Program-made: the position numbers and the translations under genes
Part shown: in pieces, positions 3,908-64,000 of the stretch
Position numbering within the stretch: the stretch's first letter is position 1
Layout: each line of letters starts with the position of its first letter
Notes under the pieces: model-generated
Told to the model about the DNA's origin: nothing
What the model saw: only the letters and a program-made list of their open reading frames with translations
The model's database searches: none
Source: Clostridia bacterium
GTDB lineage: Bacteria; Bacillota; Clostridia; Oscillospirales; Acutalibacteraceae
Direction of reading: 5' to 3'
NCBI GenBank assembly: GCA_017453685.1
Contig: JAFTEL010000125.1
Span: forward strand, 5,025 to 69,024
DNA length: 64,000 nucleotides

Positions 3908-4729
3908 TCAGCAAGCGCTGAACTCATGGGTGATCCGCGTGTCGACGTACAGAATCTCGGCGGCCTTTTCCAGCTCGTTCGGGCAGAACATAAACTGATC
4001 GATCCGCGCCAGCACGTCGGGTTCCAGCCGATCCGTCTGATCGACCAGATCGACCATGACGCCGAGTGAGAGGAAATCTCTGCCGTAGAGGAACAGGCAC
4101 TGCAGGTCGGAATTGCCCTGCTCAAAGATGTAGCCGTTCAAATCGGAGCCGTCGGTCGGGCCGAGCTCGGTGACTGCGGCACGGCGGTAAAGGGTTTTGA
4201 CCATTTTAAACAGCTTGGCAAACGGCTGCACCTTGCCCGCGATGAGTTCAATGGGCTTGGTCATTTGCATCACGGTGTTGCCCAGACGGGACATCCAGTA
4301 GTGCATCTGCAGTTCCCGCGCCGCGCCCTCCGGCGAACGGCCGACCATATCCCTGCCGTAAGCATTGCGGTAAAGATCAAGGCCAAACTGCGCGAGTACG
4401 TCCCAAAGCTCCTGCCGATAGACGTGATCTACGCCTAACTGCGTGTTGTCAAAGGAATAACAGAATTCGCTCAGGTGCGCCGTGATCGGGACGGGAACAG
4501 AGTCGAAGACAAACGTGATGTTGTATCGGTCGCCCTCTTCCTCTTCCACATCTTCCTCCCCTTTCGGGCTCAGCACAGCGGCAGCGGAGCAGATAAACTG
4601 CCTGCCGTTGAAGGAATACGCGATCTCTTCCTCAAACACGACGTCCGCCGCAGCGCCGATCAGAATAGCAGAAGCGGCGACGGAAAGCGCAAGCACGACG
4701 GCGATCAGCCGAACAGCGATTCGTTTCAT
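3908..4729 (-). CDS. Hypothetical secreted protein
   Basis: Start trimmed to the ATG at 4729, preceded by GGAGG with an 8-nt spacer. The signal peptide is MKRIAVRLIAVVLALSVAASAILIGAAA. An acidic stretch 'EEDVEEEEGD' follows. I recognise no family. Confidence 0.6.
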   Translation of the reverse strand: MKRIAVRLIAVVLALSVAASAILIGAAADVVFEEEIAYSFNGRQFICSAAAVLSPKGEEDVEEEEGDRYNITFVFDSVPVPITAHLSEFCYSFDNTQLGVDHVYRQELWDVLAQFGLDLYRNAYGRDMVGRSPEGAARELQMHYWMSRLGNTVMQMTKPIELIAGKVQPFAKLFKMVKTLYRRAAVTELGPTDGSDLNGYIFEQGNSDLQCLFLYGRDFLSLGVMVDLVDQTDRLEPDVLARIDQFMFCPNELEKAAEILYVDTRITHEFSAC

Positions 4730-4891
4730 GATAGGAACCTCCAAAACCTCACCTCACGCGATAACAGAGAAAATGGTAACAGGATTTTCCGCTTCTGTCA
4801 AGCGTTTTGAAAGATTTGATCGGCGCTTGACGATGGGGCGCTGTTTGTGTTACAGTGTTCGCAAAGAAACGATCAGCAAGGAGAAAAAACA

Positions 4892-6412
4892 ATGGACAAG
4901 ACCATGAAGATCGGCTTCAACACCTTTGACGGCGACGTTCTGGAGGCGCGCCCGTCGTTCACGCTGCCCGCCGAGAGCGGAAAGGGCGTGGACTTTGTGC
5001 TGTGTCACTTCGACCCGCAGCGGTTTCCGCTGGCACAAGCGACCAAAGCGGCCGAACAAGCAGCGGCGATCCTCAAAGAAAAAGGCATCGATTTCATCGC
5101 CAACTTTGAGTTTCAGAACTTTGACCGCGTCAGCAATTACGGCGATTACGACTGGGCGAACCGCCCCGACGGCACGCATCGGCTGAACCTGCCGAAGGAA
5201 TACGTGCAGGCGCTCGCGTCCGCCGGCAACCTGATCGGCGTGATGCACGATGAATTTGAACACGCGATCATCAATCGGAACCTGTCCATCATCCTCGCTA
5301 CCAAGGGCAAAACCAAGCTCTCGGTCTTCCCGCTGAGCGAAAGCAGCGACCCGAAGGCGCAGGCCGATCTGCTCGACCGACAGCTCAAGGAGTACGCCGA
5401 CGACGTCAAAGCCAAGGGCGCGAAGCTCTTCACAGGCGAACACGTTTTCCCCGTGTTTTATCACAAATTCGCCCGCAGCGGCATCATCCCCAACTTCAAA
5501 TCGCAAAAGGAATGTTGGTCGAACCTGCAATTCGCCACGGCCGCCGGCGCAGCGCTGCAATACGGCACGCCGCTGTTCAACTGCGTCGACCTGTGGTTCA
5601 TAAACACGAACCCCGGGCACAGCCCCAACGAAATGTATCACAACCTCGTTTTCGCCTATTATGCAGGCGTCGACCGCGTTTACGTCGAAAGCGCGCACTG
5701 CTTCACCGACGACGAGCCCGCAACGCTCAACGCCTACGGCGAAAAATTCGCGCAGTTTTCCGCAGAATACCGCGGTAAACAGCGCGATTATGATATCGCC
5801 GACTACCGCCCTGAGATCGGCATTATCCGCTTTGACGACAGTTTTTGGGGGCAGGGCGACCCGGTCATGTGGCGCTATATGCTCTTCGGCAATCCGGAGA
5901 TCAAACCGACGAAAGAATCCAAAGAATGGATCAGGGCGTTCCGCCTCATCACCCACGGCGAAAGCGGACGAAACACCTTCTGTTGGGACAAGGTCGCGCC
6001 CTCCATGCTGAAAAAGCACCGCTCCTTCGCCACGATGAATTCCGCGGCAGTCTTTGACGAAAACGCCGACAAATCAAGCCTTTCGTCGCTTAAGCTCTGC
6101 TTCCTGTGCGGCAGCTATATCAGCGAAGAAACGCTGAAAGCCGTCGCCGAACTGGTGCGCGAAAACGGGCTGACCGTTGTCGCGCCCGCGCGGTTTGCCC
6201 CCTCCCCCGCCGAAAAAAAGGCGTTTCGCGTCATCCCCGACGGCAAGGGCAAGTGGATCGTCTGCAACAATCTCGCGGACGGCAGGCTGCAAAAAGAAAT
6301 CGCCCCGTTCCTCGGGAACAAGGGCGAGATCAGACTCACCTTCGCAGGGGATAAAGAGATCAGACTGAAAATCAGCGAAGACGGTGAAGCGTTCACTGTC
6401 ATGCAGGGATAA
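4892..6412 (+). CDS. Uncharacterised cytoplasmic protein (possible TIM-barrel glycosidase-like enzyme)
   Basis: Start trimmed to the ATG at 4892, preceded by AAGGAG with an 8-nt spacer. 506 aa with no signal peptide. Acidic motifs 'MHDEFEH' and 'VYVESAH' are spaced as in beta4/beta7 catalytic Glu of clan GH-A enzymes. This is inference only. Confidence 0.6.
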   Translation: MDKTMKIGFNTFDGDVLEARPSFTLPAESGKGVDFVLCHFDPQRFPLAQATKAAEQAAAILKEKGIDFIANFEFQNFDRVSNYGDYDWANRPDGTHRLNLPKEYVQALASAGNLIGVMHDEFEHAIINRNLSIILATKGKTKLSVFPLSESSDPKAQADLLDRQLKEYADDVKAKGAKLFTGEHVFPVFYHKFARSGIIPNFKSQKECWSNLQFATAAGAALQYGTPLFNCVDLWFINTNPGHSPNEMYHNLVFAYYAGVDRVYVESAHCFTDDEPATLNAYGEKFAQFSAEYRGKQRDYDIADYRPEIGIIRFDDSFWGQGDPVMWRYMLFGNPEIKPTKESKEWIRAFRLITHGESGRNTFCWDKVAPSMLKKHRSFATMNSAAVFDENADKSSLSSLKLCFLCGSYISEETLKAVAELVRENGLTVVAPARFAPSPAEKKAFRVIPDGKGKWIVCNNLADGRLQKEIAPFLGNKGEIRLTFAGDKEIRLKISEDGEAFTVMQG

Positions 6413-22963: not shown

Positions 22964-22991
22964 CGCCATCGAAATCAAAAAAGATAAAAAA

Positions 22992-23030
22992 CGTGCCTGA
23001 ACTGTGGAAAGCTTCCATCGTTCGGGCACG
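22992..23030. terminator. Hairpin terminator between convergent genes
   Basis: CGTGCCTGAAC / GTTCGGGCACG stem of 11 bp including one G-U, with inner hairpin TGGAA-agc-TTCCA. An A-rich run upstream gives a T-run on the minus strand. Confidence 0.5.
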
Positions 23031-23053: not shown

Positions 23054-23752
23054 TCATCTGGCGGATTTGGCCATGCTTTCCCGCTCGGCGATCAGCGTCA
23101 GCAGTTGGTCGCCGACCGATTCGGTCATGGCGTCGTCGCCGCGGGAAACCGCGTCCGACAGGACGGTGAAATTGGCGTAGATCTTCGCTTCCACCTCGTC
23201 CAGCGCGGGCGTGCTGGTTTTGTCGGCATAACGGAACGCTTCATACACCTTGTTTGCCATCGCTTTGGTCTCGTCGGTTTTCGCCTTGGCGATGAGCCCT
23301 TCGGCCGCCGTCGTCATCTGGCGGATAAACGCGGTGTTGACGGCAACCTTCTGCCCGATATCCGTGACCGCGGTCGCGGCGGTATCGGCTTTGACGACAG
23401 CGATGGCAAAGAAGCCAAGGATGAGCACCGCCGCCAGGATCGCCACGAAGAACGGCACGCCGGGGATGAAGGCAAGCGCGGTGCACACGAGCGCCGTCAC
23501 GATCACGCAAGATTTGCCCAACGACAGCAGCGGCAGATTCAAGAAGACTTTTTCTTTGTTCTCTTCGTTCAGGCATTTGTAACCCAATCCGAGCTGGATC
23601 AAAAAGGCAGCCAGCACGGCGACGTAGCAAATGATAAAGGTCGCGTCGATTTTTTTGCCGGGGATGAACATGGCGGCAACGAAAGCGAACACACTGAACA
23701 TGACCACGGCGATCGCCCAGATGATCGCAAAATTCTTAAAATACTTTTTCAT
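23054..23752 (-). CDS. Membrane protein (4 TM) with C-terminal soluble alpha-helical domain
   Basis: Start trimmed to the ATG at 23752, with GGAGG 5 nt upstream. The protein begins MKKYFKNFAIIWAIAVVMF.... The C-terminal half is Ala/Lys/Glu/Thr-rich. I recognise no family. Confidence 0.7.
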   Translation of the reverse strand: MKKYFKNFAIIWAIAVVMFSVFAFVAAMFIPGKKIDATFIICYVAVLAAFLIQLGLGYKCLNEENKEKVFLNLPLLSLGKSCVIVTALVCTALAFIPGVPFFVAILAAVLILGFFAIAVVKADTAATAVTDIGQKVAVNTAFIRQMTTAAEGLIAKAKTDETKAMANKVYEAFRYADKTSTPALDEVEAKIYANFTVLSDAVSRGDDAMTESVGDQLLTLIAERESMAKSAR

Positions 23753-23770
23753 AATTACCTCCAACTAACT

Positions 23771-23802
23771 TAATGCGGAATGCGGAGTGCGAAAGGCGGA
23801 AT
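23771..23802. repeat. Left arm of 32-nt inverted repeat flanking the four-helix-bundle gene
   Basis: TAATGCGGAATGCGGAGTGCGAAAGGCGGAAT, made of four AAKGCGG-like heptamers. Confidence 0.9.
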
Positions 23803-23837
23803 TATGGGTCGCTTCGCTCCGATTTCATTACGCACAT

Positions 23838-24227
23838 TCAGTTTGAAATGCTCTTTTGCGTTTTTGTGATAGCTTTTAACAATTTCATCAATTCATTACA
23901 GTCGGCATAAATGCTTTCAAAGGATGATTTGTCGATATAATTACTCTCATACAGAAGTTCAAGCCAATAACCCGTTTCGGCTGCTTCTTTGAGAGCGATA
24001 TTCATTTTGGCATAAAAGTCGGCTTTGGTCTGCCCACATTCTGCTTCGCAAATGTTGGCTCCGATGCTTGTGCCGGAACGGAGAATTTGTTTGGACATAA
24101 CATACTCATTCTTCTCCGCAGTGAGAAACTGATAAAGACGAATTGTTCTCAAGGCAAATTGTTTTGCCTTGTTAAGAACAATGTTTTCGTTTTCTTCATT
24201 CCGCACTCCGCATTCCGCCTTCCGCAT
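23838..24227 (-). CDS. Four-helix-bundle protein (23S rRNA intervening-sequence protein / bAvd family)
   Basis: '...ILRSGTSIGANICEAECGQTKADFYAKMNIALKEAAETGYWLELL' is the family signature. Start set at the ATG at 24227-24225, which overlaps the upstream TAA (TAATG). The longer track ORF runs into the upstream gene. Confidence 0.85.
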   Translation of the reverse strand: MRKAECGVRNEENENIVLNKAKQFALRTIRLYQFLTAEKNEYVMSKQILRSGTSIGANICEAECGQTKADFYAKMNIALKEAAETGYWLELLYESNYIDKSSFESIYADCNELMKLLKAITKTQKSISN

Positions 24228-24229
24228 TA
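24198..24229. repeat. Right arm of 32-nt inverted repeat
   Basis: Reverse complement reads TAATGCGGAAGGCGGAATGCGGAGTGCGGAAT. It matches the left arm at 27 WC + 2 GU of 32 positions when folded as RNA. It contains the SPFH stop codon and the 4HB start codon. Confidence 0.9.
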
Positions 24230-25633
24230 GATTTTCTCGCCGCATTCCAGGCAGAACTTGCCGCCCGCGGGCACGTCGGCGCCGCACTTCGGGCATTTAT
24301 TGCTCAGCGGCGCGCCGCAGGCGATGCAGAATTTGCCCTTGGGCGTGGCCGCGCCGCACTTGGGACAAACGACTGTATCCGCGGAAGCCGCGGCGACTTT
24401 TTCACCGCAGATCAGGCAGAATTTCGCGTTGACGGGCAGATCCGCGCCGCATTTGGCGCATTTCACACCCGGCGCAGCGGTATTGTTCGGCTGATTGCCG
24501 GTCATGCCGCCGAAGATGCCGCCGATCTGGCCGCTCATCGCCTGCGCGGCCTGCAGGCCGACGCCCAAACCGAGGATGTCGCTCATGGTCGAGCCGCCCG
24601 CGCTGCCACCGCCGCCGGAGCCCATGTTGCCGATGCCTTCGGCGTAAGCCTTCTGCACTTCCGCCTGAACGTAGTCTTTCTTGGTGATGCCCTGCGCCTG
24701 CATGACCTGCGCTTCGGCAAAGCCCGCCTGACGGGTCGCTTCCGCTTCGGCCTGCGCGGCGATGATCTGCCGTTCGGCGGCGCGTTTGGCGACTTCGGTC
24801 TGCGTGGTCTGTTTTTCCAGCTCGGCCACGCGCTGCGCGGCGGCGATCTGCGCCTGTGCCTGCGCCTGCGCCGTGCGCACCTGCGCTTCGGCAGCCGCCA
24901 TTTTGGTCTGCAGCGCAATGGTATGTAACTCGCGGATGCGCTTGAAATTCGGATCTTCCTCGGGCAGAACAACGGTCGTCAGATAAAAGTTCGGTACCGT
25001 CAGCCCGTATTCCGCAAAGCCGGGCTCGATCTTCGCTTTCAGCGTGGCGGAAAGCTCGTCAAGGTGTTCGTCGACCTCAAGAATATTGATGCCGTTCTCT
25101 TTGATCGCGGCGGTGAGATTGGATTTGACGGCGGTCGAGATCATGGGGCGGAACGAGTTTTGCAGCGACTTGGTGAAGTTCGCGCCGCTCTCGCCCCAGG
25201 CGATGCCGTTCATGGTGCCGACCAGCTTGATGAGCAATTTGAGCCCGTCGCTCACCTTGAGGTTGAGCGAGCCGCTCGCGCCGATGTCGAGCGGGATGCC
25301 GTATTCCGCTTCGAGGTAGCGCACCTTGCTGTCCGTGCCCCATTTCAGGTCCATCTGCACGGTCTGATTGATGAAATAGACCTCGCAGTGGAACGGCGTT
25401 TCGTCGCCGGTGGCGCGGTTGAGGTATTTGCCGATCTTGGGGATGTTCTGCGTTTCCAGCGTGTAACGCCCCGCGCGGAACACGTCAAGCGCCTCGCCGT
25501 TCATGAAGAAAACAGCCTCCTGGCTCTCGTGAACGATCAGCTGCGTGAGGGCGTTGAAATCCTCACAGGGGTGCTTCCAGATAAAGGTGCTGTTGTCGCC
25601 TTCATATTTGATGATATCCGCAATTTTTGCCAT
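24227..25633 (-). CDS. SPFH/band-7 domain protein with coiled-coil, Gly-rich linker and three C-terminal zinc ribbons (YdjI/COG4260-like)
   Basis: N-terminus 'MAKIADIIKYEGDNSTFIWKHP...LIVHESQEAVFF', then an A/Q/E-rich coil. Three CxxC-x9-10-CxxC units: KCAKCG...CLICG, VCPKCG...CIACG, KCPKCG...CLECG. Confidence 0.85.
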   Translation of the reverse strand: MAKIADIIKYEGDNSTFIWKHPCEDFNALTQLIVHESQEAVFFMNGEALDVFRAGRYTLETQNIPKIGKYLNRATGDETPFHCEVYFINQTVQMDLKWGTDSKVRYLEAEYGIPLDIGASGSLNLKVSDGLKLLIKLVGTMNGIAWGESGANFTKSLQNSFRPMISTAVKSNLTAAIKENGINILEVDEHLDELSATLKAKIEPGFAEYGLTVPNFYLTTVVLPEEDPNFKRIRELHTIALQTKMAAAEAQVRTAQAQAQAQIAAAQRVAELEKQTTQTEVAKRAAERQIIAAQAEAEATRQAGFAEAQVMQAQGITKKDYVQAEVQKAYAEGIGNMGSGGGGSAGGSTMSDILGLGVGLQAAQAMSGQIGGIFGGMTGNQPNNTAAPGVKCAKCGADLPVNAKFCLICGEKVAAASADTVVCPKCGAATPKGKFCIACGAPLSNKCPKCGADVPAGGKFCLECGEKI

Positions 25634-25651
25634 GGTTGCCCCTCCTTATCT

Positions 25652-25837
25652 TCAGTTGATTTCAATGTTCTGAACTGCGTATTCCAGGCATTTGAGAACA
25701 ATGTCGTTTCGGGTGCGCTTGGTGTCTTCCGCGATCTCGTCCAGCCGCGAAACAAGGTCGTTCGGCAGGCGCAGAGAAAGCACACTGCTGTCGCCGCTGA
25801 ACTTTTTCTGGCTGATCACAAGTTTTTTGTCGTCCAT
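25652..25837 (-). CDS. Ribbon-helix-helix (CopG-family) DNA-binding protein
   Basis: 61 aa. 'VLSLRLPNDLVSRLDEIAEDTKRTRNDIVLKCLEYAV' has the strand-helix-helix pattern. Confidence 0.75.
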   Translation of the reverse strand: MDDKKLVISQKKFSGDSSVLSLRLPNDLVSRLDEIAEDTKRTRNDIVLKCLEYAVQNIEIN

Positions 25838-25869
25838 CGTGCTGTTCTCCTTCTTTCAGATTTGATACA

Positions 25870-25899
25870 ATGATACTACAACTGTAATGCATTTGTCAA
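25870..25899 (-). promoter_or_regulatory. Promoter of the RHH-SPFH operon with candidate RHH operator repeats
   Basis: Minus strand reads TTGACA (25899-25894), 18-nt spacer, TATCAT (25875-25870). Direct repeats TGATAC at 25863-25868 and 25871-25876 overlap the -10. Confidence 0.45.
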
Positions 25900-25916
25900 T
25901 AATTTTTCGATTTTTG

Positions 25917-25945
25917 TTGAAAACGCGCTTTTGGTGTGGTAAGAT
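25917..25945 (+). promoter_or_regulatory. Promoter of the divergent Zn-ribbon membrane protein gene
   Basis: TTGAAA (25917-25922), 17-nt spacer, extended -10 TGgTAAGAT (-10 at 25940-25945). Confidence 0.5.
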
Positions 25946-25984
25946 GTTGGCAGAATCATCGGCGGTAAAAAAGGAGAAGAACAT

Positions 25985-26491
25985 ATGGAAGACTTCAAAT
26001 GTCCGGTCTGCGGCGGCACACTGGAGATCAGCCTGTTTTCCGCCTCGGCGGTCTGCGAATCGTGCGGCAACCGCTCGCAGGTCGACTTCAACCAAACCAA
26101 AGAATACCGGCAGGTTTACCACGAAGCGGAAAAGCTCGCCTGCCTGAACACCGTCGACGGCTATACGAAAGCGATCGAACTGCTGGACTCCATCCCGTTC
26201 GTGAAAGAGGCAAAAGAGAAATCGGCGGCTTATCACAAGCGCATCCAGGAAATCCGCGAGAAGAAGGAAGCGCAGCAGGAAGCCGAAAAGACGAGCGGCA
26301 AACATGAAACCGTGTTCGGCATAGCGCTCATCGTGCTGGTCATCCTCATCGTGCTGGCGGCCGTTGCGGCGGGCGCGGTGATCTTCGTGCGGCTGGTGCG
26401 GGGCGAGCTTTCGACCCAGACGACCATCATCCTCGTGATCGTCATCGCGGTGCTGGTCGTCGGCGCGATCGTCGGCAAAATCAAAGGATAA
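25985..26491 (+). CDS. Zinc-ribbon protein with two C-terminal TM helices
   Basis: 'CPVCGG...CESCG' ribbon, a helical linker, then '[25 protein letters not shown]' and '[18 protein letters not shown]'. AAGGAG RBS present. Confidence 0.65.
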
Positions 26492-61747: not shown

Positions 61748-64000
61748 TTATCGCTGGTCGATCTTCGGGAGCATCCCGAACAGCCCCTTGAAGAACCCGA
61801 CGAATTTCGCGAAGAAATTGGTCTTGACGTTGACCGTTTCCACTTCGCTTTCTTTCAGAACAGTCTTGCCGTCGGACGCGATGAGCTTGATCTGCACCGT
61901 GTATTTCGCCTTGGCTTTATCCACGCGGCAGCTTTCCTCCGTGCCCTTATCCTGGCCGTTGATATACCAGTGAACCTTGCTGCCCTCATAGATATTCTTC
62001 GCTTCATAATGGAAGGTGACCGTCGCTTTGTAATCCACGGTTCGGCTTGCGGTGAAACCGAGAATCTTGATTTCGGTGTTTTCCGCCGTTTCAACCGTCA
62101 CATCATAGGTCGCGGTTTTGGTAACGCCGTTTTCGGTGTAGCGAACGGTCACGGTCTTGCGCCCGAGCGAGCGCAGGTCGGCAGAAGCGGTGAATCCCGA
62201 TCGGACGGTTTTCTTCGTTCCGTCAGAATAGGTCACCTCAAGCGCCAAGCCCGTTGTGTCCACACTCTCGCCCGCCGCATAGATCCGTTTCTGCGGCAGG
62301 GTCGTGATGCGGATGGACGTTAACGCAACGGCTTTCACCGTCACCGTGAAGGACGCGGACACGCCCTGATAGGTCACGGTCAGGGTCTGCTCGCCCGTTT
62401 GAGCGGGATCAAACGCGCTGACGCTGTAGTCCGATGGCTGCAAAACAACCGTTTCGCCGTCGTCATATTGAACCGCTGCCGCCAGCCCCGAAAGATCAAG
62501 CGCTTCTCCGACGAAATACGCCGTTTTGGTCGGCGGCGTGACGAGCAGCGCTTCGATCGCTTTCACATGCACCGTAAACGTGGTGGTATAGCCCGCAAAG
62601 CGGATCGTGACCGTTTTATCGCCGGGCGTGGAAAGATCGGGCACGCTGACGGTGTAATTAATGCTGTCCAGAACCTCCGACGAGCCATCTTCATACACGG
62701 CGCGAACGGAAAAGCCTGTCAGATCGAGCGGCTGACCCGGAAGAACCGACGTCTGAGCCGGTGGCGTGACGATCAACTGCTCCACCGCCTTCACCGTAAC
62801 CGTAAAGGACGCGGTGAAATCCTGATAGCTGACGGTGATCTCTTTTTCACCCGCCGTGGAAGAATCCAGCGGACTAACGCGGTATTGGGAACTGTAAAGA
62901 GCGGAGGTCGAGCCGTCCGTATACCTGGCGCGCACGGACATGCCGGACAGGTTGAGCGATTCGCCGACCACATAGGTCAGCTTGCGCGGCTCGGTGAGTT
63001 CAATGGCGCAAAGGCTCTTCACCACAGTCACTTTTAAGGTGACAGTCTTGCCGTAATATTTGATAATGACGGATTTTTCGCCCGCCACGGTCGAGTTCCA
63101 GTTGGTCACGGAACAGTCGTCGAGCGAAACGGCTTTGCCGGAACAGTTGGAATAGAACGCCGAAATGCCGACGCCACTCAGATCGAGCTCATCGCCGATC
63201 TCATAAACCGTTTTCACGTTTTCCGACAGCGTCAGCTCAATACGATCGACTCCGACGTTGGCGGTTTTGATCCGCAGCGCGGGCGCCACGCCGATGTTGT
63301 TGAGCTGAACGGAATAATCGGAATCACACCGTCCGTCGGCGCTGACGATGCCGACGCGCGTTTCCTGTTTCGGCGCGTTCAGCCACCAGTTCGCGCTGTT
63401 GCTGCTTTCCCCTGCGGCAGGCATGGAAAGCCCCTGACATTTCGCGTAATCGGTCGCGGGCAAAACGCGGGCGGCGTCAGCGCTCTGCGATTCGGACGAG
63501 AAACCGTACGCGGTGTTGACGATATCGCTGCCGCTGAGCAGGGAAACGGGCTCGCCCTCACTCCCCTGCTGCGCGCCGGGATCGACGACGTTCGCCTGCT
63601 CGTCTTTGGAAAACGCCGTGTGGAAAAAGCCCTTGCTTTCCGTGTTCAGCCAGCTGCGCAGGGAGCTCGCTGACCAATCGGAGGGATTCGTCGACCCGGC
63701 GGAAGCATCGCTGAAATTGCGGTAGGCCTGACTGTCGATCACCTTGGTGCAGACCATATAGCCGGTCGACGGGTCAAGCACGCGCCAGACCAGCGGTTCA
63801 TACTTGAAGTAATAAACGGCATTTGTCTCATAGCCGTTTTGATATTGATAGGATCGTTCGGCGGCAGGCGCTTCCCCGCCGGCGGAATTCGGGCGATAAG
63901 CCGTGAAGGTGACGGCGCGGTATGTTTCGCCGTTCAGCGCGACGTCTTTATAGAACATATAGTCCGTGCCCTGCTCCGGAGCGCCCCCCGCGGCGCCGTA
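61748..64000 (-). CDS. Large surface protein with tandem bacterial Ig-like (Big_3-type) repeats; N-terminus beyond window
   Basis: At least 6 repeats of about 80 aa, of the form 'VTV(K/V)A(V/I)..L.VT.PP.KT.Y..GE.LDL.GL.V...Y.DG....V'. The frame stays open upstream of the listed Met to base 64000. Confidence 0.75.
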   Translation of the reverse strand, partial: YGAAGGAPEQGTDYMFYKDVALNGETYRAVTFTAYRPNSAGGEAPAAERSYQYQNGYETNAVYYFKYEPLVWRVLDPSTGYMVCTKVIDSQAYRNFSDASAGSTNPSDWSASSLRSWLNTESKGFFHTAFSKDEQANVVDPGAQQGSEGEPVSLLSGSDIVNTAYGFSSESQSADAARVLPATDYAKCQGLSMPAAGESSNSANWWLNAPKQETRVGIVSADGRCDSDYSVQLNNIGVAPALRIKTANVGVDRIELTLSENVKTVYEIGDELDLSGVGISAFYSNCSGKAVSLDDCSVTNWNSTVAGEKSVIIKYYGKTVTLKVTVVKSLCAIELTEPRKLTYVVGESLNLSGMSVRARYTDGSTSALYSSQYRVSPLDSSTAGEKEITVSYQDFTASFTVTVKAVEQLIVTPPAQTSVLPGQPLDLTGFSVRAVYEDGSSEVLDSINYTVSVPDLSTPGDKTVTIRFAGYTTTFTVHVKAIEALLVTPPTKTAYFVGEALDLSGLAAAVQYDDGETVVLQPSDYSVSAFDPAQTGEQTLTVTYQGVSASFTVTVKAVALTSIRITTLPQKRIYAAGESVDTTGLALEVTYSDGTKKTVRSGFTASADLRSLGRKTVTVRYTENGVTKTATYDVTVETAENTEIKILGFTASRTVDYKATVTFHYEAKNIYEGSKVHWYINGQDKGTEESCRVDKAKAKYTVQIKLIASDGKTVLKESEVETVNVKTNFFAKFVGFFKGLFGMLPKIDQR

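Follow-up and report, generated by a model that had tools for sequence, protein, structure and literature searches.

The 64,000-nucleotide stretch of Clostridia bacterium DNA analyzed here (hereafter the window; positions 5,025 to 69,024 of contig JAFTEL010000125.1, assembly GCA_017453685.1) contains, at positions 23,054 to 26,491, a conserved four-gene module consisting of a ribbon-helix-helix (RHH) regulator, a flotillin-like SPFH scaffold protein and two membrane partners, one with four transmembrane helices (the 4-TM protein) and one with a zinc ribbon and two transmembrane (TM) helices (the Zn-ribbon/2-TM protein). We consider it somewhat probable (roughly 0.55) that these four parts make up a self-contained, autoregulated SPFH membrane-scaffold system that is independent of PspA, and that the four-helix-bundle (4HB) gene lodged in the same operon is a passenger. 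SPFH proteins are universal membrane organizers, for which bacterial partners are, to our knowledge, known only in the cases of HflK/C-FtsH, SPFH-NfeD and YdjGHI. No published description of the module was found in the literature, where the terms COG4260, Band_7_1 and PF13421 hardly appear, and it is apparently a widespread, undescribed system of Clostridia. An earlier note on this DNA had read the locus as a PspA-less relative of the YdjGHI proteins of Bacillus subtilis; its five open reading frames (ORFs) were located at the positions it had claimed, and their domains are real.

The RHH regulator (61 amino acids (aa), 25652-25837) is the first gene of a minus-strand operon that continues with the SPFH protein (468 aa, 24227-25633), the 4HB ORF (23838-24227) and the 4-TM protein (232 aa, 23054-23752), and the Zn-ribbon/2-TM protein (168 aa, 25985-26491) is encoded divergently on the plus strand. 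An exact-sequence look-up of the SPFH protein gave no match, and its relatives were reached through homologues. The RHH, SPFH, 4-TM and 168-aa ribbon genes are kept together in six complete relative loci, with protein identities of 75-100% (RHH), 80-99% (SPFH), 51-97% (4-TM) and 31-98% (Zn-ribbon/2-TM); the RHH gene lies directly upstream of the SPFH gene in all six, and the Zn-ribbon/2-TM protein is conserved in seven loci. The surroundings of the unit in these relatives are of at least three kinds (AraD/GH42; TspO/tRNA-editing/FAD oxidoreductase; WYL protein). Since the four genes are kept together while their surroundings differ, we conclude that they move as a module. The earlier note was thus right to treat the RHH protein as a dedicated partner and to count the divergent ribbon gene as part of the unit, and its neighborhood is conserved well beyond this strain. 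The identities point to RHH and SPFH as the slow-evolving parts of the unit; at locus L055, for example, RHH and SPFH are 75% and 80% identical, and the 4-TM and ribbon proteins 51% and 31%.

Two other genomes, G034 and G130, likewise have RHH relatives located upstream of SPFH paralogues. In the operon of G034, a genome of another family and the one of the two that was read, a homologous RHH gene comes first; next come a polytopic membrane protein of 240 aa whose tail is helical, a multi-ribbon SPFH protein and a TM protein that has its ribbon at the C-terminus, the same kinds of protein as in the window in another order. An alignment of the 4-TM family with the 240-aa protein did not establish homology (hhalign probability 12.5%), only the architecture being alike. 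The window's own genome encodes a second COG4260 SPFH paralogue of 429 aa (C19:8533-9822, equivalent to L007:1036-2325), which also has ribbons; its gene has an esterase and a lipase gene as neighbors and lacks RHH, 4-TM and ribbon partners.

The domain content of the four proteins is as follows. The RHH protein scores 22.0 bits against PF01402 (RHH_1; cut-off 20.5), and a profile of six orthologues matched the antitoxin EndoAI (E 4e-4) and a CopG-family RHH protein (E 0.03) in the PDB; it carries a CopG-type ribbon-helix-helix sequence signature and is predicted to bind DNA. The SPFH protein is of the COG4260/YdjI type, as had been proposed, with a match to PF13421 (Band_7_1; E 2.6e-37) and 23% identity (BLASTP E 9e-16) to YdjI of the pspA-ydjGHI locus of Bacillus stercoris, our comparison locus. 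The A/Q/E coiled coil, Gly-rich linker and three CxxC-x9-10-CxxC ribbons described previously are all present: 56 of the 104 residues from 232 to 335 are A, Q or E, and this stretch is mostly modeled as a single long helix (228-313); the linker (333-389) has a predicted local distance difference test score (pLDDT) below 50 and is disordered; and the CxxC motifs of the ribbons lie at residues 392/406, 423/436 and 447/461. No TM-like segment was found in the SPFH protein (maximum Kyte-Doolittle 19-residue score 1.35), which is predicted to be soluble, and its model aligns with the cage-forming proteins HflK/C, stomatin, erlin, prohibitin, flotillin and QmcA (E 3e-8 to 2e-6). The AlphaFold2 model of the 4-TM protein (mean pLDDT 82.8) is all-helical, with a confident cytoplasmic helical bundle that holds the conserved motifs E-A-x-R-Y-S-D-P-x-S and E-R-N-x-x-C-K; a PDB fold search with this model gave no known fold relative (best E 0.15, TM-score at most 0.29). 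The Zn-ribbon/2-TM protein has an N-terminal CxxC-x14-CxxC ribbon (CxxC at residues 6 and 24), a helical segment and two C-terminal TM helices (110-128 and 148-166). Neither membrane protein matched a Pfam or NCBIfam family at the curated cut-off, and the weak matches were to unrelated families, with none to NfeD.

Both the SPFH and the 4-TM protein belong to large families. At E ≤1e-30 the SPFH family has at least 7999 members, and the 4-TM family comprises 4356 50%-identity clusters at E ≤1e-3 (1166 at E ≤1e-30) and has no Pfam or NCBIfam model. In a sample of 201 genomes of the order, which are related to one another and whose counts are uncorrected for that relatedness, the SPFH gene was found in 33 genomes (0 of 10 in the window's own family) and the 4-TM gene in 23. 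Outside the genome studied here, 22 of the 27 places with a 4-TM gene have it directly downstream of an SPFH gene on the same strand, a near-obligate pairing; in the window the two genes also follow each other on the same strand, parted only by a 459-bp cassette.

The partners of this pair in more distant genomes place the window locus in a larger group. At nine of 12 distant loci the third gene encodes a large protein (547-1013 aa) with a zinc ribbon (ZnR), TPR, TIR_2 and again TPR domains, in most cases one TM segment and, in the longer proteins, RCC1 repeats or DUF6273 thereafter, a layout that reads as a receptor with a cytoplasmic TIR domain. The ribbon head of these proteins, a module of 150 aa, was detected in 19 genomes, the SPFH gene being present in 17 of them as well, and 17 of its 35 places lie within 5 kb of SPFH or 4-TM genes. 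The 168-aa protein of the window shares the first 51 columns of this head (hhalign 97%, E 8e-11), as does a ZnR-DUF6273 protein that adjoins the short form at L052 and L060, and at L054 the short form and the TIR form coexist behind the SPFH-4TM pair. No TIR match was found in the 168-aa protein and no TIR_2 (PF13676) in the window's whole assembly. The window locus is a TIR-less, RHH-regulated variant of this SPFH-4TM-(ZnR-TPR-TIR) module, of which we found no mention in the literature searched. The earlier note missed this link, which is the real basis for any idea of a role in defense or signaling.

Several further observations concern these receptor-like proteins. The full ZnR-TPR-TIR_2-TPR-TM-RCC1/DUF6273 arrangement lies next to SPFH-4TM at L042:7136-9634, L043:1690-4263, L044:6484-9525, L051:6890-9547 and L054:8017-10482. 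The TIR segment of the 547-aa protein of L045, the only one aligned, matches the TIR domains of animal TLR proteins and keeps the W-x-x-E motif. At L040, a locus with no TIR protein, the gene after 4-TM (83-1267) encodes 394 aa with no Pfam match and a weak PADLOC match to SIR2 (E 4.8e-6), and may represent an effector swap. At L050 a single protein (4194-5870) joins an SPFH (Band_7_1) domain, by way of a TM segment, directly to RCC1 repeats and has neither ribbons nor a 4-TM neighbor, so that scaffold and receptor tail appear merged in one chain. DUF6273, which is the extracellular-type domain of the TIR receptors of relatives, also occurs within the window (63266-63745, one of six matches in the genome), inside a 1506-aa open frame near the window's end.

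With respect to PspA, the earlier claim that none is present held: the window's assembly (2.5 Mb, 80.6% complete) gave no PF04012 match. In the order sample, the 32 other genomes that carry the SPFH gene gave none either; all but three of these (G015, G029 and G086) are listed as at least 94% complete. Across the sample, 24 genomes have PspA and 33 have the SPFH gene, with an overlap of 0 where about 3.9 would be expected under independence, a descriptive figure only, given that the genomes are related. The membrane proteins of the two systems resemble each other much less than had been supposed. Relatedness of the 4-TM protein to YdjH was not borne out: YdjH itself matched PF04536 (TPM; E 1.1e-23), whereas the all-helical 4-TM protein did not, and BLASTP between the two gave E 1.5. 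The proposed kinship of the Zn-ribbon/2-TM protein with YdjG stood for the ribbon and for nothing beyond it, with only the first ribbon of YdjG aligning (hhalign 94%, E 1.4e-7) between proteins of 168 and 341 aa; the 168-aa protein contains a single ribbon and no globular domain. The resemblance to YdjGHI (SamGHI) is limited and rests on the SPFH protein and one zinc ribbon.

Regulation of the module can be examined in the spacer between the RHH and Zn-ribbon/2-TM genes, which is exactly 147 bp long and holds two back-to-back promoter-like sites. That predicted for the Zn-ribbon/2-TM gene (TTGAAA-17-TAAGAT with TG; 25917-25945, plus strand) has both hexamer regions conserved in the intergenic alignment, and that predicted for the RHH-SPFH-4TM operon (TTGACA-18-TATCAT, 11/12; 25870-25899, minus strand) includes a TTGACAA that is invariant in seven loci. 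The TGATAC direct repeats reported previously are present in both copies (GTATCA at 25876-25871 and 25868-25863), the first overlapping the -10 box, but they are conserved only in part among relatives. The conserved core consists instead of a TACAnnTGTA palindrome between the -35 and -10 boxes and a TTGTAT further on, and TACAnnTGTA with TTGT is kept down to L055, the locus with 80% SPFH identity. Because the first TGATAC copy is simply the variable -10 box, TACAnnTGTA/TTGTAT appears to be the better operator candidate. The candidate RHH operator accordingly spans 25863-25886 (no strand assigned), comprising the palindrome TACAGTTGTA (25886-25877) and the TTGTAT/GTATCA repeat over and after the -10 box. 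At the other end, a terminator-like hairpin followed by a U-run (22977-23030, minus strand; minimum free energy (MFE) -22.7 kcal/mol, z -2.5) lies 24-77 nt past the 4-TM stop codon and is likely the end of the operon, common to the convergent GH42 gene. The genes flanking the module in the window (AraD, GH42, GH89 and FolD) have housekeeping or sugar-use functions.

The 4HB gene, which the earlier note had regarded as attached to the module, is the cargo of an inverted-repeat cassette. The protein is a clear member of the 23S IVS protein/bAvd family (PF05635, E 4.9e-29; TIGR02436, E 7e-32), and its ORF is enclosed within a 459-bp cassette (23771-24229) by 32-nt inverted arms (23771-23802 and 24198-24229), each of which consists of four GCGRARK heptamers; the arms are 84% complementary and pair on the transcript in both MFE and centroid folds (z -3.6), and the cassette has a lower GC content than its flanks. 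Its state differs among close relatives. At L056, which is syntenic (AraD/GH42 flanks) and 99%, 97% and 100% identical in SPFH, 4-TM and RHH, respectively, there is no 4HB gene, and the right arm plus a few left-arm bases are present. The cassette is intact at L060 (4-TM 83% identical), and the close relative of this locus, L052, retains one left-arm unit and the right arm. An internal deletion at L057 (4-TM 78% identical) leaves a 71-aa 4HB fragment, L053 (SPFH 88% identical) has a small stump, L055 shows no trace of the cassette, and no 4HB match was found at the 12 distant loci (L040-L051). At L054 (SPFH 83% identical) a YafQ/RelB toxin-antitoxin pair takes the place of the cassette. Since the state of the spacer varies in this way among relatives, the SPFH-4TM spacer is a landing site for selfish DNA, and the 4HB gene is a passenger of a mobile cassette and no subunit of the module.

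The cassette belongs to a dispersed population of repeats. Genome-wide there are 51 arrays of two to four GCGRARK heptamers and 11 convergent pairs, whose inner parts measure 129-395 nt; an associated box, GGAGCGAAGCGACC, was matched at 33 sites with no more than one mismatch. Many copies begin directly after T-runs or stop codons with TAATGCG, the inner parts hold further nested heptamer arrays of the ATTCATT type, and the family as a whole looks like miniature inverted-repeat transposable elements (MITEs) or repetitive extragenic palindromic (REP) elements. One array (C19:7595-7615) lies about 900 nt downstream of the stop codon of the solitary SPFH paralogue, past the neighboring lipase gene. 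Four other PF05635 genes occur elsewhere in this genome, in unrelated places: two (C5:13258-13575 and C37:21938-22252) are flanked by inverted AATTCCG-type heptamer arrays between genes of unrelated operons, and two (on C171 and C82) have other hairpin repeats upstream. We found no description of PF05635 cassettes with heptamer arms in the literature. The empty sites at L056:3622-3682 and L052:6404-6460 are independent, and both keep the whole right arm and at most one left-arm unit, reflecting either recurrent deletion of one kind or a solo array that is an intermediate state. The toxin-antitoxin pair of L054 (6061-6598; a YafQ/ParE-type toxin with a RelB antitoxin) is on the opposite strand, exactly in the spacer that holds the 4HB cassette here. 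The possibility that the 4HB protein is the Avd protein of a diversity-generating retroelement mutating a DUF6273 target was ruled out, as the assembly contains no reverse transcriptase.

Taken together, the locus probably encodes a membrane-tethered SPFH cage that organizes zinc-ribbon-headed membrane clients. The soluble SPFH protein would use its SPFH domain and the helix of about 85 residues to assemble a ring or cage at the cytoplasmic membrane face; its fold similarity to HflK/C, stomatin, flotillin and QmcA suggests such an arrangement. The 4-TM partner is expected to tether the SPFH protein, which has no TM segment of its own, through the conserved cytoplasmic helical bundle, a role suggested by the obligate gene pairing and by the precedent of YdjI, a soluble SPFH protein that is recruited by membrane partners (PMC8581546, PMC13713150). 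The divergent Zn-ribbon/2-TM protein would then be a client or adaptor whose N-terminal ribbon head docks onto the scaffold, where the three ribbons at the SPFH C-terminus are a possible contact site. The RHH protein may bind the TACAnnTGTA/TTGTAT element over the -10 box and so repress the operon in which it is encoded. Such a system would operate with no PspA. Its likeliest output is the organizing or gating of membrane proteins, or the sensing of membrane perturbation. More tentatively, the cage and its 4-TM tether could constitute a general docking platform for which the ribbon head is the addressing tag, perhaps recognized ribbon-to-ribbon by the SPFH C-terminus; clients would then range from 168-aa stubs to the receptor-like ZnR-TPR-TIR-TM-RCC1/DUF6273 proteins, and the whole would be a PspA-independent transmembrane receptor or signaling hub, of which the window would show the minimal, RHH-regulated form.

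Some of the evidence weighs against the scaffold system outlined above. The Pfam score of the RHH protein is barely over the cut-off, the SPFH model has a mean pLDDT of just 64.8, the exclusion between PspA and SPFH is descriptive in a sample of related genomes, and at 80.6% completeness the absence of PspA or TIR from this assembly is unproven. In addition, cage formation, 4-TM tethering, docking of the ribbon head and RHH autorepression are all steps that we infer, and the TIR link of the relatives, together with one weak SIR2-like match, could point to a conflict-system origin. Two ways of fitting the locus into a more familiar scheme can be given little credit. That the 4HB protein is a functional fifth subunit would fit its intact ORF here and at L060, the overlap of its ATG with the SPFH stop codon (TAATG) and its identical position in three lineages; nevertheless, it is highly improbable in view of the absence of the gene from the syntenic L056, which has module proteins 97-100% identical and keeps a single repeat arm, the similar stump at L052 relative to L060, the remnants or absence at L057, L053, L055 and all 12 distant loci, the four further copies at unrelated places in the genome and the low GC content of the cassette. 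Equally, we give very little weight to the view that the locus is a true orthologue of B. subtilis YdjGHI/SamGHI serving a PspA/IM30 encoded in the unassembled 20% of the genome. The incomplete assembly would permit this, and the SPFH protein has the Pfam family and layout of YdjI (SPFH domain, low-complexity linker, C-terminal ribbon) alongside a YdjG-like membrane protein with a cytoplasmic ribbon. However, a TPM-domain protein is lacking, YdjH and the 4-TM protein are unrelated, and YdjG is matched in a single ribbon, its second ribbon and its NTF2-like domain (PMC11237479) having no counterpart here; PF04012 was also absent from the 32 other SPFH genomes.

A third alternative, that the module is a conflict or anti-phage system of the abortive-infection type, or the stripped remnant of one, is better founded, though we still regard it as unlikely. 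Here the SPFH-4TM pair would sense membrane damage caused by phage and the ZnR-headed partner would execute the response, by cleavage of NAD by TIR in the relatives and by membrane disruption by the 2-TM protein in the window. A defense or conflict role is possible because the SPFH-4TM pair of relatives is linked to TIR proteins (nine of 12 distant loci), and the SIR2-like neighbor at the TIR-less locus, the patchy distribution of the module (33 of 201 genomes and none in the window's own family), its differing contexts among close relatives and the selfish insertions in the SPFH-4TM spacer (toxin-antitoxin pair, 4HB cassette) are in keeping with it. On the other hand, a search of PADLOC-DB 2.0 with all five window proteins matched no family at E ≤0.01, and the neighbors in relatives gave weak matches only (PDC-S66, LmuB and SIR2, each at about E 5e-6). 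The genome has no TIR_2 domain, the genes around the module are those of housekeeping or sugar use, and no paper combining SPFH, a TIR domain and anti-phage function was found in the literature. Finally, the SPFH protein matched only seven loci among 2.9 million viral contigs and so is not a phage gene.

The 4-TM protein represents a very large family (4356 50%-identity clusters) for which neither Pfam nor NCBIfam has a model, and which proves to be a near-obligate companion of Clostridia SPFH proteins of the COG4260 type. The shared zinc-ribbon head is a candidate docking tag and links the scaffold both to small membrane proteins and to TIR-carrying, receptor-like ones, and the TIR-less, RHH-regulated variant of the window, as the simplest form, suits the study of SPFH tethering and of the ribbon head with no possibly toxic TIR effector. 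What the present analysis adds is this variant, the ribbon head that it shares with the larger proteins, the lack of overlap between SPFH and PspA genomes, and the decay series of the cassette. The cassette also carries a caution, in that a gene inside an operon may be a mobile passenger and no subunit.

Among known systems, one of the closest is the PspA-YdjGHI (SamGHI) envelope-stress complex of B. subtilis (PMC8581546, PMC13713150, PMC11237479). In both, the SPFH protein is soluble, belongs to Band_7_1, has a low-complexity linker and carries zinc-ribbon sequence at its C-terminus; it is encoded with two integral membrane proteins, one of which has a cytoplasmic N-terminal zinc ribbon, and recruitment of the SPFH protein by its membrane partners is the likely shared logic. 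The window, in contrast, has no PspA, and its second membrane protein is an all-helical 4-TM protein rather than the TPM-domain YdjH. Its ribbon protein carries a single ribbon and two TM helices and lacks an NTF2-like domain, whereas YdjG combines two zinc ribbons with an NTF2-like (YpeB-related) domain and a TM segment at its C-terminus (PMC11237479); the window's SPFH protein is extended by a coiled coil of about 100 aa and bears three ribbons; and its operon has its own RHH regulator, whereas that of B. subtilis is controlled by sigma-W. The module therefore resembles SamGHI in one way, in that dedicated membrane partners accompany a soluble SPFH protein, and is no member of that system. 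The SPFH/NfeD (for example E. coli QmcA-YbbJ, PDB 8z5g) and HflK/C systems are similar in that an SPFH protein and a dedicated membrane partner form a two-gene unit, and the window SPFH model aligns with these cage-forming proteins; here, however, the partner is not NfeD, and the SPFH protein lacks a TM anchor of its own and ends in zinc ribbons. Another close system is the SPFH-4TM-(ZnR-TPR-TIR) module of gut and rumen Clostridia, with which the window locus shares the SPFH subfamily (40-68% identity), a directly downstream gene of one 4-TM family and the same ribbon head on the third component. It differs from that module in that its third component is a 168-aa stub with no TPR, TIR or extracellular domain, and in having an RHH gene upstream, a divergent third gene and a 4HB cassette that splits SPFH from 4-TM.

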